The notes under the pieces were generated by a model. The model saw nothing but the letters and a program-made list of their open reading frames with translations, was not told the origin of the DNA and did no database searches. The translations under genes and the position numbers were made by a program. Shown in pieces: positions 34,251-50,215 of a DNA stretch of 64,000 nt. Numbering within the stretch: the first letter of the stretch is position 1; every line of letters starts with the position of its first letter. Source of the stretch: a phage; NCBI GenBank assembly GCA_026683435.1, contig GCA_026683435.1_4866.1. One strand, 5' to 3'.

Positions 34251-34730
34251 TCATTGCACAAGGCAACTACTTTTGTGCCGTTCGTAGGCACGATTAAAAG
34301 ACTCTCTGTCTTCGCGATAGCTGCGAATGAGAGACTTAATCTGTCGTGACAAATCACGACTAATGTCTTGAGGGCTACGAGAACCAGGGTCGAGATATAT
34401 CCCGGAGGGTATACCATGAAGAGTGGGGCGAATAAACTCTTCACAAAGCGGTGCGGTCATCGGGGTGTGCCACCCTTTAGCTTCTGCATAGTTGTTTACT
34501 GACTTAGCGTACAGATAAACGTAATAAGCATAAGCGTTCACATCCGCAACAAACATTTTCCCTGCCAGCTTTTTCGCCTCAGGACTGTTCCCACCGTTAT
34601 ATACTGGTGGGTGTTCTAAAGGACGAAAAGGCCAATCTCCGGTTGAGGAGTAATCTGGGTCTACGTGACGGATGACCCCAGGGCATCCTGTCAACAATAG
34701 CACCAGTATCGCCACCAAAAATAACTTCAT
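34251..34730 (-). CDS. lipoprotein (candidate outer-membrane partner of upstream gene)
   Basis: N-terminus MKLFLVAILVLLLTGC has signal peptide with lipobox LTGC; 159 aa. Confidence 0.75.
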   Translation of the reverse strand: MKLFLVAILVLLLTGCPGVIRHVDPDYSSTGDWPFRPLEHPPVYNGGNSPEAKKLAGKMFVADVNAYAYYVYLYAKSVNNYAEAKGWHTPMTAPLCEEFIRPTLHGIPSGIYLDPGSRSPQDISRDLSRQIKSLIRSYREDRESFNRAYERHKSSCLVQ

Positions 34731-34739
34731 GTATGCTCC

Positions 34740-35255
34740 TCATGGATTATTAAGCGTACTGATAATCTCCTGTCGGAAATCGTTTGCCGCCTGCGACCCC
34801 ACTGGGCGAGAAGCTGCCTGGTGTTTCTTGGCAGGCGGGCTAGACGGATTTAACGGTGCCTGTGGTGTTACCGGCTTGAGTTCTTCAGGCGGAACCGCGG
34901 CCCCAGTGCCTGTCCCTGTTGGAGATTTGGTACCATCATATGGCGATCGAGAACCCAGGCATGTGAAGAGACGATCGTACAGCTTATTGTTCTCCACTTC
35001 GCCATGATCGGACTTCTCTTTTAGCTCCTTATAGGATATCTCCAGATACTGAGTACGCGATTGGACGCTAACCAGTGTGTGGTATTGAACAATGTAGGCA
35101 TATGAGACAAATGCAGAGAACGCGATCAGTGCCACTATCACTAGTGTCACTATTTTCCCGGCTCGTGTTACTTTCTCCCCCTCGCCCGGTTTAAATGCTT
35201 CCCACAGAATCTGTAAGAATGGAAGCAGTTTGAAAACTGATGCTATCATGCTCAC
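34740..35255 (-). CDS. inner-membrane-anchored protein with short coiled-coil and Pro/Ser/Thr-rich C-terminus
   Basis: 171-aa ORF; single hydrophobic helix IVTLVIVALIAFSAFVSYAYIV near N-terminus. Confidence 0.7.
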   Translation of the reverse strand: MSMIASVFKLLPFLQILWEAFKPGEGEKVTRAGKIVTLVIVALIAFSAFVSYAYIVQYHTLVSVQSRTQYLEISYKELKEKSDHGEVENNKLYDRLFTCLGSRSPYDGTKSPTGTGTGAAVPPEELKPVTPQAPLNPSSPPAKKHQAASRPVGSQAANDFRQEIISTLNNP

Positions 35256-38857: not shown

Positions 38858-39451
38858 TTACGCATCGGCCTCAAAGAACGGCTGGTTTGGTACCACTGCG
38901 TATTCGAGCACGAACAGATGTTCTGGGGCATCTTCTGCTCGCCACAGTTTGTGGCACGTTGCCAGTTTTTCCAGGATGGTCAACCAGCTGAGCTGGCAGA
39001 AAGCACGGTCGCCGAAGAACAGTTTCTGCAGTGCAATCGACACATCCATATACGCCTGTTTGAAGTCGAGTTCTTTATCGTAACCCGCCGACTGTCGCCA
39101 CGTCAGCACGAAACCTGCTTCGGTTTCGTTAATTGCTGGACGTAAACCACAAATCCACATCAGTGCCAGATTAACGTTCCAGTCGAATTCGATACCTTCG
39201 TCTTCGTCATCACCAAACGCCGCGTTTAACGCATCGTAGAAACCGTGGTTCTCTGCGAACCATTCGCCGTACTCAACGTAGACCGGTGCTTCGACAGCTT
39301 CCCCATCGACTTCACCGATAGGACGCTCTACATAGTTCGGGTTGGTTTGAACGTGTTCCGCACCCGCGCGAATTAATTCGTAGACATCTTTGGCGGTGAT
39401 TTGTGCGGCTGTTTTAAGACCTGGATACCAGGGGCGTGTTACGAGTGTCAA
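38858..39451 (-). CDS. hypothetical protein
   Basis: 197-aa ORF, 4-nt overlap with upstream gene. Confidence 0.65.
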   Translation of the reverse strand: MTLVTRPWYPGLKTAAQITAKDVYELIRAGAEHVQTNPNYVERPIGEVDGEAVEAPVYVEYGEWFAENHGFYDALNAAFGDDEDEGIEFDWNVNLALMWICGLRPAINETEAGFVLTWRQSAGYDKELDFKQAYMDVSIALQKLFFGDRAFCQLSWLTILEKLATCHKLWRAEDAPEHLFVLEYAVVPNQPFFEADA

Positions 39452-40170
39452 AGCAATGCTCCTTTCATGATAGTGTTATTTGCCAGTAGTGTACCGGCCG
39501 CAGGTGATATTTTGGTGTACAGCGTATCCCAGATTTTCTGAAGCTCAGCGACGCGTTGGTCGCGGTCTTCCTTCGCAAAAGCAAGCTGACGTGTTTCAGC
39601 TTTCGGTGGCGTCATTTTCGCACCGTAGAATGCTGCGTCTTTTCGGTAGCTGTCCATCCAGCGTTTCCCGACCGATGATTTCTTTTTAATCATCGCAACA
39701 GCAGCGCTCTCACCGAAGCGGTAGCCTAATGCAATTTCGGCTGTGCTCGGCTTGCGTTTGAGTTGTTTTGTCAGATGATCCTCGATGTGTTTCATGTAAA
39801 CAGCAGCAAGCTGTACAGCATATTTCGGTTTATTAAGGTCTGCGTTCTTTGGGATGTTAAGTTGTTTCCCATACAGACGTATCATGGAGCGTTTAGTACC
39901 TGTCGTCATTTGGACAACACTACTAGCACTGCTCGATTTATTCTTACCCACGTTTTTATTAAAACGGGATTCGCGGTAAATGGTGGTCGCAAGCATCCCG
40001 GCATGTACACCTTGCTTTTGAGATGCAGAGACGATGAGAGGTTTAATCTCATTGAACTGGTCCTGGATAAGGACAAATTCTTTTTGATGTTTGTTACTGG
40101 TGGACTGGTAAGAAGCGTTGCTGTTGAATGTGGTCACTGCTACCAGAAGAAATAAAATGGTGCGAAACAT
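39448..40170 (-). CDS. secreted or signal-anchored lytic transglycosylase-like protein (candidate endolysin)
   Basis: N-terminal hydrophobic signal MFRTILFLLVAVTTF; motif ESRFN…SSSASSVVQMTTGT parallels the SLT motif of the giant protein. Confidence 0.65.
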   Translation of the reverse strand: MFRTILFLLVAVTTFNSNASYQSTSNKHQKEFVLIQDQFNEIKPLIVSASQKQGVHAGMLATTIYRESRFNKNVGKNKSSSASSVVQMTTGTKRSMIRLYGKQLNIPKNADLNKPKYAVQLAAVYMKHIEDHLTKQLKRKPSTAEIALGYRFGESAAVAMIKKKSSVGKRWMDSYRKDAAFYGAKMTPPKAETRQLAFAKEDRDQRVAELQKIWDTLYTKISPAAGTLLANNTIMKGALL

Positions 40171-46427: not shown

Positions 46428-47054
46428 TTATTGCGGAATAAACTTACGGTGTCCGAGTGATTCCCAAAAACTATCGGTGCGCTCTTTGGTTAATTCATAC
46501 CACGCCCGCCCGGCATCAGAATCGACAACCTTTAACGTTTCAGTAAGCAGGAATTTGAACAGTTCGGCACTACGACCGGGTGCCACGCCGTCGAGATATA
46601 TCGGGATTAAATAACCGGTTTTGATTTCTTCGTACGCTTGCGATTGGTGCTGGCCAACAACCCAGGCATCAGCAGCGCTACCGACCAAAGTGGTGTTTAC
46701 AGTCAACTCATCAGAAATCCAGTTAACTGTATCAGCCATTATTGAATCGCCATTGACGTAGAAGAAAACCAAACGCTTAGGTTGCTCCACCGAACCAGCC
46801 AAATCTAATGCGGTGGTTCCGGTAAAGATCGTATTGTTAGGGTTACGTTCTGCAATAGGTAGAGCAAACCACGCTTCTAGCTGTTCCCAGCTACGCGGCA
46901 GTGCTTCTTTAAACCACTTCACCAATCGCGGGTATTCCAGAAACCCTTCTACCTCTTCTTCCATCAGATTGATACGCAGTTTGGTATCCCGACGATTCGC
47001 TTTCTGACACGTCACCATGTCGTCGATGAAACGAATCAGGGTAATCTCGTTCAT
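46428..47054 (-). CDS. hypothetical protein
   Basis: 208-aa ORF. Confidence 0.65.
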   Translation of the reverse strand: MNEITLIRFIDDMVTCQKANRRDTKLRINLMEEEVEGFLEYPRLVKWFKEALPRSWEQLEAWFALPIAERNPNNTIFTGTTALDLAGSVEQPKRLVFFYVNGDSIMADTVNWISDELTVNTTLVGSAADAWVVGQHQSQAYEEIKTGYLIPIYLDGVAPGRSAELFKFLLTETLKVVDSDAGRAWYELTKERTDSFWESLGHRKFIPQ

Positions 47055-47081
47055 GTTTAATCCTTCTTCAACAAAAAAAGA

Positions 47082-47101
47082 AGGTAGCCCGTAGGCTACC
47101 T
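47082..47101 (-). terminator. intrinsic terminator (minus strand)
   Basis: hairpin aggtagcc-cgta-ggctacct with T-run on minus strand. Confidence 0.6.
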
Positions 47102-47108
47102 CTCGTAT

Positions 47109-47609
47109 TTACAGCCCCATATGCATAAGGGAAATGATTGGGACCTTATGGCCACGAATCATTGCATACGGTTCGTACATTTGTGCGTTGGTTTCGAATA
47201 ACTCACAGGCCGGAATACGGTCACCGGTAGAGAGTTGTAAGACCTCAATTTGGTCGCCCCAGAAGTTATTCACTAATACGTGGTCGACGGTGTTGTCTTC
47301 ACGACCTTCAGGGGTGCTACGATAGGTGGCTGCATCGTACCAACCTTTGCGGTATACTTCATATCCCGCGTGAAGCATCCGGTAGTACGGACGTAGCTGT
47401 GGGGCATTCAACGCAGCATCTAACCATTCGCTGTGGATGCTGTTAATCAGTACAGTTGCTTCTGCTGGCCAGTCGGTGCGATTGAGGGTTAACTCGCCTA
47501 ACAACTTCAACTTCCAACCAGTAGAAAGAATAGCACGGGTACGTTCAGGGTTAACGTTCATCTGAGTAAAGAAAGAAGAACGGGTATCGTCGAGAATGTT
47601 CATGTTCAT
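47109..47609 (-). CDS. hypothetical protein
   Basis: ORF track 47109..47675; start moved to ATG 47609 (MNMNILDD) with RBS aagga so the upstream hairpin is intergenic. Confidence 0.6.
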   Translation of the reverse strand: MNMNILDDTRSSFFTQMNVNPERTRAILSTGWKLKLLGELTLNRTDWPAEATVLINSIHSEWLDAALNAPQLRPYYRMLHAGYEVYRKGWYDAATYRSTPEGREDNTVDHVLVNNFWGDQIEVLQLSTGDRIPACELFETNAQMYEPYAMIRGHKVPIISLMHMGL

Positions 47610-47647
47610 TTGCTTAATCCTTACGGGTAATAGTCGATTAAAAAGGA

Positions 47648-47683
47648 CCCTGCGGCTAAGTGTTGGGGAAATCACCGCAGGGC
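47648..47683 (-). terminator. hairpin with long loop (putative terminator)
   Basis: ccctgcgg…ccgcaggg 8-bp stem followed by T-run on minus strand. Confidence 0.4.
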
Positions 47684-47709
47684 CAAAGTGAGATGGGTCG
47701 TCATCTCAC

Positions 47710-47738
47710 GTTATAACATCTGTCTGAAAACTTTTCGG
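47710..47738. promoter_or_regulatory. partial copy of conserved element (copy E)
   Basis: GTTATAACATCTGTCTGAAAACTTTTCGG; shares ATCTGTCTGA with copy A. Confidence 0.3.
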
Positions 47739-48122
47739 TTACTGGTCGAGCGCTATTGAACCACGCACTTCGCCTTGTTGTTCAATAACCAGGAGGCGCT
47801 GTTTGGTTTTCGTATTGTAAGCGAGCGACGCGCGAAGCGTCGGGTCGCACGTTATTGTCTCTACTGGCACAATCTCTTGTGCCTTTGAGTTCAACAGAAA
47901 GTAATAACCTGCCGGACAAGTTTCCTCGCCCTTTGCGTGGACTAGGATGTACTCGTCGTGCCGGCTGACTTCTTCACATCTACCATCGTCGCCAGTACAG
48001 ACTTCGAACGAAGGCGGGTTGTACTGATACGGTGTGCCTGGTAGTAAATCTTCTACGCTGGTTGTAGCTGAAGCAGAAGCGGTCAAGAACACCGCCGCGA
48101 TAATACCCATAAATCCACGCAT
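47739..48122 (-). CDS. small secreted Cys-containing protein, paralog S1
   Basis: 127-aa ORF; signal peptide MRGFMGIIAAVFLTASASA; motif ILVHAKGEETCPAGYYF. Confidence 0.7.
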   Translation of the reverse strand: MRGFMGIIAAVFLTASASATTSVEDLLPGTPYQYNPPSFEVCTGDDGRCEEVSRHDEYILVHAKGEETCPAGYYFLLNSKAQEIVPVETITCDPTLRASLAYNTKTKQRLLVIEQQGEVRGSIALDQ

Positions 48123-48135
48123 GTTGTTTCCTTAC

Positions 48136-48546
48136 TTAAAAGTCGAGTTTATTGATGCCCACGTTTTTCTTAATCGTAGGGTCGTACATGATAACCGTCA
48201 GGGCATTGTCGCCTGGGTCGCGAGTAAACTCGGCAACGGCTTCACCACTGCAGGCTTGGTTATCATTATAGTTCATGGATTCGGCTTGCCCGGTTGCCAT
48301 GTTAATGACCCCGTATTCAGGGTCGCCACATGCGACACCGCCCATCGTTTTCACTAACAGATAACGGTTGTTATCGGACATCGCAACGATCTGGCAGCTA
48401 CCGCCTTGTACGTCAGAGTTCTGGCACCAGAACTCTCCGCCGTATTCGTGATCGTTAACAACTTTTGGTAACTCGATACTTCCAGCACGAGCGAAGAAGC
48501 TAATGGCCAGAGTAGCAAGTAAAACTGGTAATAAAAAATGTTTCAT
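48136..48546 (-). CDS. small secreted Cys-containing protein, paralog S2
   Basis: 136-aa ORF; signal peptide MKHFLLPVLLATLAISFFARA; motif LLVKTMGGVACGDPEYG. Confidence 0.7.
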   Translation of the reverse strand: MKHFLLPVLLATLAISFFARAGSIELPKVVNDHEYGGEFWCQNSDVQGGSCQIVAMSDNNRYLLVKTMGGVACGDPEYGVINMATGQAESMNYNDNQACSGEAVAEFTRDPGDNALTVIMYDPTIKKNVGINKLDF

Positions 48547-48568
48547 AATAGCACCTCAATTTTTTGAG

Positions 48569-49060
48569 TTATTCTGAATAGTCGATTGTTTTGATGGTTT
48601 CCATACCGTAGTACATAGCGATGGAGGCCAGAGTTTTGGTATCCGGTCGCTGTACAAAACCGGCCCTGAAATCTTTGCTGCAAATTTTCTCCACTGATAG
48701 TTCATCACGATTAGGGATAAGCCATAACGCGTCACCGTTGTGACGGTCGACTGCACCCCACCAACCTCCTGGGCAATCTTTATCGCCCGGACGGTGTACG
48801 ATAGCGACACGACCGTTGAAGGATATGTCAACTACACGACACTGTTTCTTAAGCAGCTTACGCGCATTGCACCAGAACGGCTTATCATTAAGATTGATGG
48901 TGCGGGTATATGCTGGAATGCTGCCGTTAATACTGCCCTGGAACCCGCTGAATTCGTCAGCGCGTGCCTTAGAAATCCGTAGCCCAACAACAACTGCCAT
49001 CAACAGCACAGTAAAAAGCACCACTTTGGCCAAGTGGCGATTAACGTTATTGCATTTCAT
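48569..49060 (-). CDS. small secreted Cys-containing protein, paralog S3
   Basis: ORF track 48569..49105; start moved to ATG 49060 (MKCNNV) with RBS ggagat; motif AIVHRPGDKDCPGGWWG. Confidence 0.65.
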   Translation of the reverse strand: MKCNNVNRHLAKVVLFTVLLMAVVVGLRISKARADEFSGFQGSINGSIPAYTRTINLNDKPFWCNARKLLKKQCRVVDISFNGRVAIVHRPGDKDCPGGWWGAVDRHNGDALWLIPNRDELSVEKICSKDFRAGFVQRPDTKTLASIAMYYGMETIKTIDYSE

Positions 49061-49448
49061 TTTTGATATCTCCACGAATGAGGGTGATGCGACCAACGAG
49101 CACATCGTTGTGATAAAAACTCACAGCAACCAGATCTGGTAATTCCAACGGTGATACGCTGACCGAAGTGACTTTTGGTTGATCGCACGATATGTCGATT
49201 AACCGCTGATACATTTTCAATTTCTTATCAGCGATAACCAGCCCTGTGCAGTTCTTACCGTCCGTCAGTCTGTAGATTTGTAACTGTTCGACCTCACGCA
49301 TCAGTTCCGGTTTTTCATTCGGCGCAATGCCATAATCCGAATCAGCTGATGTGTATTCAGTCACGTCTGGCTTATCGAAAGCATAAGTTGCTGCAATGCC
49401 ACATGCGGCCAGAACTACTACTGCTTGTAAGAACTTCTTGATAGTCAT
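49047..49448 (-). CDS. small lipoprotein or secreted protein S4
   Basis: 133-aa ORF; N-terminus MTIKKFLQAVVVLAACG with lipobox-like LAAC. Confidence 0.65.
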   Translation of the reverse strand: MTIKKFLQAVVVLAACGIAATYAFDKPDVTEYTSADSDYGIAPNEKPELMREVEQLQIYRLTDGKNCTGLVIADKKLKMYQRLIDISCDQPKVTSVSVSPLELPDLVAVSFYHNDVLVGRITLIRGDIKNEMQ

Positions 49449-49484
49449 GTTTTACTCTATAGTCGATTGGTTTAAAAAAGAATA

Positions 49485-49502
49485 GGCTACCCGAGGGTAG
49501 CC
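49485..49502 (-). terminator. intrinsic terminator (minus strand)
   Basis: hairpin ggctaccc-gag-ggtagcc, T-run on minus strand. Confidence 0.6.
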
Positions 49503-49530
49503 AGTTGAGTTAATCTCTTAACTCTCACCT

Positions 49531-49561
49531 AGGTAATATATATCTGAGATATTTTACAATG
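49531..49561. promoter_or_regulatory. conserved intergenic element, copy D
   Basis: AGGTAATATATATCTGAGATATTTTACAATG; begins at stop codon of upstream minus gene. Confidence 0.45.
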
Positions 49562-50150
49562 TGAACGTTGTGTTAAGAATACGAAAACCCAACGCACGCT
49601 TAGCGATTTGCATATTTGCAGGCGTAAAGTCCACCAGTTTGATTTGAACGATCGATAAATCGTAAAGCTTGTGAAGCACTTCGATTTTGTGTCGCCAATC
49701 TGTTTTTTGGTGCAGCTCTATCGTCGTTGGTATCTCGCCTAGTCTCGGCAACTGTGCTCCAAGTAAACGATGGTGGACTTTACCGTTTATAGTTGGAGTG
49801 CCTTCCGTGACCATCAGCCGCGCATCGATGTAGTTATTTCGCTTAGCGTATTCCATAAAAGTTTTGACGTTTATCTTTTCCTCGTATAGAATGCTGCGAA
49901 AGTATTCGTAAATGATGTGTCCCGCCACCTTACCACTTTCCGAGTCCGGAATAACCTTATCGATGAAAATCGCAGAGACCACTTCGCTCCCACGCGAATG
50001 CATTGTAATGACCCTATCCCCGTGCTGTGCGGCAGTTAATAATCCACTCACATCAAGCCCCACCGGAAACAAGCCACGACTACGCATTACGTGCAGGTCT
50101 TCTAACTTGTTCTCTTGCAGTCGTAAAATACGTTCTGTCATATACCACAC
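49554..50150 (-). CDS. hypothetical protein
   Basis: 198-aa ORF. Confidence 0.65.
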   Translation of the reverse strand: MWYMTERILRLQENKLEDLHVMRSRGLFPVGLDVSGLLTAAQHGDRVITMHSRGSEVVSAIFIDKVIPDSESGKVAGHIIYEYFRSILYEEKINVKTFMEYAKRNNYIDARLMVTEGTPTINGKVHHRLLGAQLPRLGEIPTTIELHQKTDWRHKIEVLHKLYDLSIVQIKLVDFTPANMQIAKRALGFRILNTTFTL

Positions 50151-50188
50151 CTCAAATTAATTTGAGTTAAGTGTAAAAAATAAGAGGA

Positions 50189-50215
50189 CTCCAGTAACCC
50201 TCGTGGTTACTGGAG
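50189..50215 (-). terminator. intrinsic terminator (minus strand)
   Basis: 11-bp stem ctccagtaacc/ggttactggag, T-run on minus strand. Confidence 0.6.

Follow-up and report, generated by a model that had tools for sequence, protein, structure and literature searches.

What role can four small, apparently exported proteins, encoded one behind the other, have in a virulent phage? The question is raised by positions 47,739 to 49,448 of a phage DNA stretch of 64,000 nucleotides (nt) (contig GCA_026683435.1_4866.1 of GenBank assembly GCA_026683435.1), which at its full length is referred to as the window. An earlier note, made from this sequence alone, had described a tandem array of secreted cysteine-containing proteins here, encoded by four consecutive minus-strand genes of 127, 136, about 163, and 133 amino acids (aa), and all four open reading frames (ORFs) were found. 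They are named A to D by position:

47739-48122, minus strand: gene A (gp183 homologue), 127 aa, four-cysteine paralogue and the type nearest to YfjS/YafY
48136-48546, minus strand: gene B (gp182 homologue), 136 aa, four-cysteine paralogue
48569-49060, minus strand: gene C (gp181 homologue), 163 aa, four-cysteine paralogue nearest to B, with an N-terminal extension
49047-49448, minus strand: gene D (gp180 homologue), 133 aa, divergent two-cysteine paralogue (Cys67, Cys88)

Very probably, these tightly packed same-strand genes form a cassette encoding one superfamily of small non-virion proteins with signal peptides, a remote branch of YfjS/YafY that is shared with bacterial islands. Jumbo phages of the SPN3US-like clade have conserved the cassette, and as a block it is found in CP4-57/CP4-6-type islands of Enterobacteriaceae as well.

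The window comes from an SPN3US-like jumbo phage of Salmonella (Seoulvirus, Chimalliviridae), with region 47000-50200 sharing 96-98% nucleotide identity with genomes of Seoulvirus (e.g., JN03, EC001, the SPFM phages, and SPN3US). SPN3US, for which flagella serve as the receptor, is a member of the Chimalliviridae (PMC11428620). Its counterparts of D, C, B, and A are SPN3US_0180 (gp180), SPN3US_0181 (gp181), SPN3US_0182 (gp182), and SPN3US_0183 (gp183), respectively, every one of them annotated as hypothetical, and a literature search on SPN3US gp180-183 or their signal peptides returned nothing relevant. Within the cassette, D and C overlap by 14 nt, gaps of 22 and 13 nt separate C from B and B from A, and a purine-rich ribosome-binding site lies ahead of all four start codons. 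An alternative start of gene C at an upstream ATG at 49105, as annotated in JN03, gives a protein of 178 aa (48569-49105, minus strand) and an overlap of 59 nt with D. SPN3US uses the start of the 163-aa form, which is preceded by a GGAG ribosome-binding site and provides a proper signal peptide. A search of the whole window detected no family members outside the array.

Export and family membership of the four proteins

Signal peptides were judged by a rule-based scan together with the conservation of cleavage sites. One was assigned to each of the four proteins, in agreement with the earlier note (the slash marks the cleavage site):

48066-48122, minus strand: signal peptide of A, aa 1-19, MRGFMGIIAAVFLTASASA/TT
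48484-48546, minus strand: signal peptide of B, aa 1-21, MKHFLLPVLLATLAISFFARA/GS
48959-49060, minus strand: signal peptide of C, aa 1-34, ...VVLFTVLLMAVVVGLRISKARA/DEF
49380-49448, minus strand: signal peptide of D, aa 1-23, MTIKKFLQAVVVLAACGIAATYA/FD, with a lipobox-like LAAC (Cys16)

In all family members, a short N-terminus with positive charge is followed by a hydrophobic stretch free of charges and by an AXA-type site, in the n-h-c order of n-region, hydrophobic h-region, and c-region. Examples of the cleavage sites are ASA/T, ARA/G, ARA/D, TYA/F, VRA/D, AHA/E, and VSA/E. These features are kept in orthologues at 30-70% identity despite drift of the peptide sequence itself, and among the 78 gene-like ORFs of the window, A to D fell within the seven top scores of the scan (at least 3.7). 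The four proteins display the n-region charge, the h-region, and the small residues at -3 and -1 of type I Sec signals, and no RR of a twin-arginine motif is visible in their sequences. The bacterial homologues are named "Secreted protein" in UniRef. From these sequence features we infer that A to D are exported via Sec. For C, cleavage at ARA/DEF rather than anchoring in the membrane is supported because the signal peptides of bacterial C-type homologues, which are short, end with AHA/DEF or AHA/DGGF at the aligned position.

The lipobox-like LAAC that the earlier note had reported for the fourth gene is present in D, but its cysteine is not conserved among orthologues. LAAC is restricted to the SPN3US subgroup, where Gly occupies +2. 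Cys16 is missing in SPAsTU and in two further orthologues (P0062, P0066), with LAFLG at the lipobox position in SPAsTU and LAFSG or TAFVG in other relatives, while the D copies of Machinavirus have a cysteine elsewhere within the hydrophobic region. The cleavage sites of D orthologues are conserved (TYA/F, SFA/D, and VSA/P types). D was rejected as a conserved lipoprotein on the missing or displaced LAAC cysteine. A, B, and C have AXA-type sites instead of a lipobox, and the lipoprotein signal of the YfjS_YafY type (Cys at +1, Asp at +2) was found in none of A to D.

The relationship of the proteins to each other was seen first in the motifs around a conserved cysteine pair, for which the earlier note had named three proteins. 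The motifs ILVHAKGEETCPAGYYF, LLVKTMGGVACGDPEYG, and AIVHRPGDKDCPGGWWG were all located in the proteins. BLASTP aligned B with C (E 5e-8), A with C (7e-6), and A with B (0.09), and returned no alignment of A with D. Family alignments were then built with orthologues from six further phages and trimmed of signal peptides before hhalign, which gave E values of 1.3e-8 for A-B, 3.1e-8 for A-C, and 1.4e-16 for B-C. The four cysteines are in register throughout the A, B, and C orthologues, and as judged from sequence A, B, and C are paralogues whose similarity exceeds chance.

The duplicated family is larger than the three members first proposed, as D belongs to it too. Compared by hhalign with an A-type alignment that had been enlarged with divergent metagenomic members, D matched with 88.5% probability and an E of 2.7e-6 over 80 columns (reversed-sequence control, E 0.52). 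Mature D has only two cysteines, which align to Cys3 and Cys4 of A, B, and C. AlphaFold2 models of mature B and D reached predicted local distance difference test scores of 86.7 and 86.8 and predicted template modeling scores of 0.81 and 0.78, respectively, and contain seven strands each in identical order. When the D model was searched in BFVD, its own orthologues ranked first, and the next three in the entire library were B- and A-type proteins of Erwinia phages (probability 0.99-1.00, template modeling score 0.45-0.63). Profile comparison and predicted fold thus agree that D is a fourth, divergent paralogue that has lost the first cysteine pair, and similarity links all four proteins. The domain that follows the signal peptide is predicted to comprise about 100 aa and seven beta strands. 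Disulfides are proposed between Cys1 and Cys2 and between Cys3 and Cys4, because Cys1 and Cys2 are lost jointly in D and in YfjS.

That no known family could be recognised, as stated at the outset, holds for direct scans only. Pfam gave no match of A to D at E <= 1, the NCBIfam and PADLOC scans gave nothing, and the PHROGs matches were families of unknown function (5248, 8968, 17072, and 9424). Profile comparison in turn pointed to a remote relative, PF20494 (YfjS_YafY), with which YfjS of K-12 scores 228.6 bits. A hidden Markov model (HMM) of the A type matches YfjS-like proteins at E values of 3.6e-8, 3.4e-9, and 1.2e-5. An alignment of four YfjS sequences matched the expanded A type with 91.1% probability and an E of 1.1e-6 over 91 columns, compared to an E of 0.26 in the reversed control, and both YfjS cysteines as well as the N-terminal "PP.F" motif are in register. 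YfjS, like D, is without the first cysteine pair. By this profile-profile similarity and by the common position in the cassette, the phage family is assigned as a remote branch of the YfjS/YafY superfamily.

When 1.84 billion representative proteins were searched exhaustively by HMMER with a profile of A, B, C, and E, a further four-cysteine type of Wellingtonvirus, 29 matches were obtained. Three of these were long repeat proteins with summed weak repeat scores and three came from scrambled SPFM assemblies (P0036, P0051, P0006). The remaining matches, about two dozen, were 106-164 aa long and nearly all had signal peptides. A word-indexed homologue search with C alone found relatives at the level of Seoulvirus only.

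Several candidates were rejected. The repeat proteins (P0039, P0046, P0052) were not accepted as members, their scores being sums of weak repeat matches like that of ThreeFoil (3pg0), a designed protein found by PDB sequence match, in which three identical repeats sum up and each repeat reaches an E of only 0.71-3.4. There was no significant single-repeat match to a ricin-B or beta-trefoil lectin, and a closed beta-propeller of the WD40 or TolB-like kind with four or more blades was not found. When compared with the family HMMs, YfjT/YkfB, YpjK, YfjW, and the DUF4339 and IrmA proteins of the islands proved not to be members.

Two further ORFs of the window carry signals for export outside the array. 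At 34251-34730 (minus strand), directly downstream of ORF 34740-35255, an ORF of 159 aa begins with a classical lipoprotein signal (MKLFLVAILVLLLTGC/PG). This ORF, which does not belong to the family, may function in lysis or in the envelope. The other, at 39448-40170 (minus strand), encodes a protein of 240 aa that is predicted to be exported by a strong signal peptide of the Sec type (MFRTILFLLVAVTTFNSNA/SY).

Occurrence in phages and host islands

By tblastn, B and D were found in an identical set of 64 phage records. These represent four genera and contain the family in 3-5 copies. The strand is constant in the retrieved loci, and the array always lies upstream of the homologues of gp184, gp185, and SbcC (gp186). 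The gene order by genus is as follows:

Seoulvirus and Erskinevirus: D-C-B-A
Machinavirus: D-B-A
Wellingtonvirus: D-B-A and the extra four-cysteine type (E)

The D-B-A core is retained in all four genera and in more distant metagenomic relatives, one of which has two copies close to the SbcC gene. Identity to phiEaH2 amounts to 50% for D, 61% for B, and 56% for A, compared to 25-55% for gp177-179, gp184, and gp185, and D, B, and A are hence conserved at least as well as their neighbors. The ratio of nonsynonymous to synonymous substitution rates (dN/dS) is 0.10-0.14, with synonymous sites close to saturation, showing that the cassette is under purifying selection.

Mass spectrometry of purified virions of SPN3US identified 86 proteins (PMC5694885, Supplementary Table 1), none of which is A, B, C, or D, and the four are also absent from three SPN3US proteomics papers. 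They are not virion components. A role in the virion or its assembly, for which nothing speaks beyond the encoding in a phage genome, is extremely unlikely on this absence and on the signal peptides, which would remove the proteins from the cytoplasm, the site of capsid assembly.

Homologues of B in bacteria were assigned to the following protein clusters:

P0031, 136 aa, 46% identity to B: E. coli, Salmonella, Citrobacter, and Serratia
P0037, 137 aa, 38% identity to B: E. coli and Shigella sonnei
P0048, 152 aa, 34% identity to B (hhalign 96.8%): Edwardsiella tarda, several copies per genome

The P0031-type gene also occurs in Klebsiella, and a genome scan with P0031 gave few loci, all enterobacterial. 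Its DNA was present in 142 of the 5426 complete E. coli genomes and was chromosomal in all of them. The host islands are of the CP4-57/CP4-6 type, with AlpA, YfjJ-like proteins, a YfjP-like GTPase, a WYL regulator, DUF932, antirestriction proteins, RadC, DUF987, and CbeA/CbtA. Defense genes are often near, such as a pair of Gabija-like OLD-family ATPase and UvrD helicase in an E. coli island (L014) and abpAB and rnlAB in CP4-57.

The protein nearest to phage C (P0002, 71% identity) is encoded in a chromosomal island of Salmonella Infantis (L020). There, the gene for a secreted protein of 189 aa is followed by those for a YfjS_YafY lipoprotein (PF20494), a C type, a B type, and an A remnant, so that YfjS-C-B-A remnant corresponds to D-C-B-A of the phage, and the window and the island are 72% identical over 871 bp. 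Identity to the phage protein is 71% for both the C type and the B type (136 aa), and 62% over 26 aa for the A remnant of 62 aa. The YfjS-like gene of another E. coli island (L018) overlaps a C-type gene whose product is 49% identical to phage C. In a neighbor-joining tree, the Salmonella B copy is nested within the Seoulvirus B clade, and phage C resembles the Salmonella island copy (65-71%) more than it does C of SPAsTU or phiEaH2 (43%). On the basis of this nesting and of the position of C, genes have moved between these phages and the islands of their hosts.

The fragment of the Salmonella Infantis island with similarity to A (L020 9039-9227; VNCPAGYYFILDSLAKEIL...) is fused to a YkfB/YfjT-like C-terminus and looks like a decayed fourth gene of the cassette. 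Immediately upstream of the YfjS-like gene lie secreted proteins of 189 and 211 aa (L020 6946-7515 and L018 2601-3236), which have weak matches to the family HMM (E 0.0035) and the YfjS HMM (E 0.023), respectively, and may be distant relatives. The segment from the WYL regulator to DUF932 (L016, which is CP4-57 of E. coli K-12, and L018) appears as a variable slot for small exported proteins, containing YfjS, YfjT/YkfB, IrmA-family proteins, and the B and C types. Expression of ykfB is driven by an intragenic FliA promoter of yafY (PMC4183435), a curious finding in view of the flagellotropism of SPN3US.

The following elements flank the cassette in the window:

49524-49540, minus strand: TATATTAC(N4)GTG motif, N4 being CTAG, just past the stop codon of gp179; candidate early promoter
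49485-49502, minus strand: G+C-rich hairpin plus T-run in the gp179-D interval; probable terminator of the upstream unit
47688-47709, minus strand: weak hairpin, GTGAGATG-ACGACC-CATCTCAC followed by TTT, downstream of A

An equivalent of the hairpin at 49485-49502 is kept in SPAsTU, phiEaH2, ChrisDB, and Kwan. It probably terminates the upstream unit and thereby sets the cassette off, at its start, as a unit of its own. The TATATTAC(N4)GTG motif fits the early-promoter consensus of phiKZ and 201phi2-1 (PMC7058600, Table 2) and is conserved in SPAsTU. As the 8-mer TATATTAC by itself is not enriched in the window (3 found, 1.7 expected), the designation as a candidate early promoter draws on its position and its conservation in SPAsTU. 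Oddly, the candidate promoter is located upstream and not downstream of the terminator-like hairpin. The hairpin at 47688-47709 was read from the sequence and was not flagged by the terminator scan; it may mark the end of the unit.

In SPAsTU, phiEaH2, ChrisDB, and Kwan, D is preceded by a conserved ORF of about 80 aa (MELVIA...YRVI.C...) that lacks a signal peptide and is missing from the window and from SPN3US. Its positions in the retrieved loci are:

L004 3243-3482
L005 3242-3481
L006 3217-3468
L008 3212-3457

In several SPFM assemblies (LR535901-LR535917) the region was matched only as about 40 shuffled pieces, and these yield chimeric predictions (e.g., P0036 and P0051) that are spurious family members.

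Possible roles in the periplasm

For the jumbo phage of the window, the results bear out an exported, cysteine-containing tandem family in a virulent phage, and the envelope or periplasm is the natural site of action for proteins with such signals. The earlier note had suggested receptor masking, superinfection exclusion, or inhibition of periplasmic host enzymes. We tentatively favor a role as periplasmic binding proteins by which competing phages or mobile elements are kept out, a proposal that taken by itself is possible but doubtful. The best overall explanation, which joins the identity of the cassette with this mechanism, is given a probability of roughly 0.4. Exclusion is ranked first because both a lytic phage and a resident island would gain from blocking competitors, and the known defense genes carried by the islands (OLD ATPase and UvrD; abpAB and rnlAB) provide a context for such a role.

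During infection, A to D would be translated in the cytoplasm and exported through Sec, after which signal peptidase I would cleave them, with D of the SPN3US subgroup possibly being lipidated instead. Their cysteines would be oxidized by DsbA, and the proteins would remain in the periplasm and bind components of the envelope or of incoming phages. As an outcome, the entry of a competing phage or mobile element would be blocked, as superinfection or entry exclusion.

A number of points weigh against this explanation. A to D stay below the gathering score of the PF20494 HMM (27 bits), no analysis presented here points to any target or to exclusion, and the Pfam, NCBIfam, PADLOC, and PHROGs scans found no similarity of A to D to known exclusion proteins. 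The sole experimental datum on a relative, the activation of Cpx by YafY overproduction (PMC6538781), points elsewhere. Moreover, SPN3US adsorbs to flagella, a receptor that would be difficult to mask with a soluble protein in the periplasm.

The alternatives, in the order in which they are ranked, run from the control of peptidoglycan hydrolases over envelope stress, accessory cargo, and lysis to the virion role dismissed above. In the first of these, which is unlikely, the proteins would be periplasmic regulators or inhibitors of peptidoglycan hydrolases, similar to Ivy or T4 Spackle. Their binding partner would be a lysozyme or lytic transglycosylase from the host, the phage, or a superinfecting phage, and the timing of lysis would thereby be set or penetration by a tail lysin blocked. 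This alternative draws on secreted two-domain fusion proteins that adjoin the B-type gene of islands:

L014 10476-11414: secreted two-domain protein, 312 aa, E. coli island
L012 5060-5947: secreted two-domain protein, 295 aa, Edwardsiella island

The C-terminal domain of these proteins can be aligned to the family (E 5e-5 and 5e-4) so that each of the four cysteines is matched, and profile comparison gave it 80.7% probability and an E of 1.3e-5. Ivy was the top Pfam match of the N-terminal domain in both species, at sub-threshold E values of 0.0014 and 0.0074. Across the CKPHDC loop of E. coli Ivy, the domain scored 26.1 in hhalign, compared to 11.4 +/- 2.2 (maximum 20.3) for 200 shuffles, or about 6.6 standard deviations. 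The loop reads CERGNC or CENGSC in the fusion proteins, and the histidine of CKPHDC is absent. These proteins hint at a link to peptidoglycan hydrolases that is two steps away from the phage genes, and A to D gave no match to the lysozyme-inhibitor models of Ivy, PliC, and MliC.

Manipulation of envelope stress is a rather improbable alternative, in which Cpx or another response would be triggered or tuned and the envelope remodeled over the long cycle of a jumbo phage, for example by the shutdown of flagella or pili. Flagella are the receptor of SPN3US, and Cpx activation represses motility. Of 90 E. coli lipoproteins that were overproduced, just two, NlpE and the inner-membrane lipoprotein YafY, switched on the Cpx envelope stress response (PMC6538781). 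However, this activation is perhaps an artifact of overexpression, and a yafY deletion was without phenotype (PMC6538781). YafY is only a remote homologue of the phage proteins, and unlike it, A, B, and C are not lipoproteins.

The genes could also be accessory, moron-like cargo of benefit in bacterial ecology (e.g., adhesion or host interaction, as with the IrmA proteins of adjoining genes in some islands) with little role in the lytic cycle. An IrmA-family gene within the same island segment (L018), the variation of the phage copy number between 3 and 5, and the exchange of gene C with island copies are in line with this. It is nevertheless improbable, as the retention of the D-B-A core in all four genera, a conservation at least equal to that of the neighbors, and a dN/dS near 0.1 argue for a function selected in the phage.

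A set of spanin-like or antiholin-like lysis proteins, with D as an outer-membrane lipoprotein, is very unlikely. While the lipobox-like LAAC of D with Gly at +2 and the presumed periplasmic location of all four proteins would suit it, the lipobox cysteine of D is not conserved and no membrane-anchored coiled-coil partner, holin, or endolysin adjoins the cassette, its neighbors being SbcC and unrelated proteins to which no function could be assigned. The beta domains of about 100 aa are also unlike o-spanins, which are short and proline-rich. D was rejected as an o-spanin on the lipobox cysteine and the lack of a spanin partner among the neighbors.

Returning to exclusion, a wider form of it can be envisaged, in which a hitherto unrecognized envelope-level exclusion or defense module is traded between nucleus-forming jumbo phages and the defense-rich CP4-57-type islands of their hosts. 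Phage copies would exclude rivals and could in addition neutralize the island copies, or island copies could guard the cell against phages that carry the cassette. This is a speculative and unlikely proposition. If true, it would describe a periplasmic arms race that comes ahead of the shielding of the genome by the phage nucleus, and if exclusion or defense is the function, the cassette would represent a new protein family in envelope-level conflict between phages and between phages and islands.

Work on jumbo (chimalli-) phages has so far centered on the phage nucleus and the evasion of cytoplasmic defense, and the words periplasm, signal peptide, secreted, lipoprotein, and superinfection are absent from a 2026 review of jumbo-phage biology. 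A conserved cassette under purifying selection suggests, given the export that we infer, that jumbo phages act in the periplasm too. It is an uncharacterized branch of the YfjS/YafY superfamily that is organized as a mobile cassette, and the link to YfjS/YafY and to the secreted proteins of islands gives a common context to both unannotated gene sets. E. coli K-12 and Salmonella offer a tractable system for finding its function.

Comparison with known systems

The favored functional analogy of A to D is with envelope-located superinfection-exclusion proteins of phages, namely T4 Spackle and Imm, T5 Llp, and Cor, which are likewise small, phage-encoded, and exported to the periplasm or membranes in infection. 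A relationship in sequence or fold was looked for and none was detected; T4 Spackle is helical, whereas A to D are predicted to be all-beta. Ivy (PF08816), the periplasmic inhibitor of C-type lysozyme, is small, periplasmic, and disulfide-containing, as proposed for A to D. An Ivy-like domain at sub-threshold level is fused to a family-like domain in the island proteins, while A to D themselves are without an Ivy match.

The "Secreted protein" clusters of the islands (P0031, P0037, P0048, and P0002; e.g., WP_001585292.1 and WP_000734138.1) are true homologues of B and C with 34-71% identity, and they match the phage proteins in length, signal peptide, and the four cysteines. They differ in residence, being encoded in integrated CP4-57-like islands, where a WYL regulator, DUF932, antirestriction proteins, RadC, and CbtA/CbeA adjoin, and not in a lytic phage.

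The YfjS_YafY proteins (PF20494) of the E. coli cryptic prophages CP4-57 and CP4-6 have, as A to D do, an envelope-targeted domain of about 110 aa. Their CxxG(Y/W)Y...(V/L)(D/N) hairpin and second cysteine align with the phage proteins, and the YfjS-like gene of the islands lies directly upstream of the C- and B-type genes, which is the position of D in the phage. Unlike YfjS/YafY, phage A, B, and C would carry an extra N-terminal disulfide pair, and they have signal peptides of the signal peptidase I type in place of a lipobox with Asp at +2.

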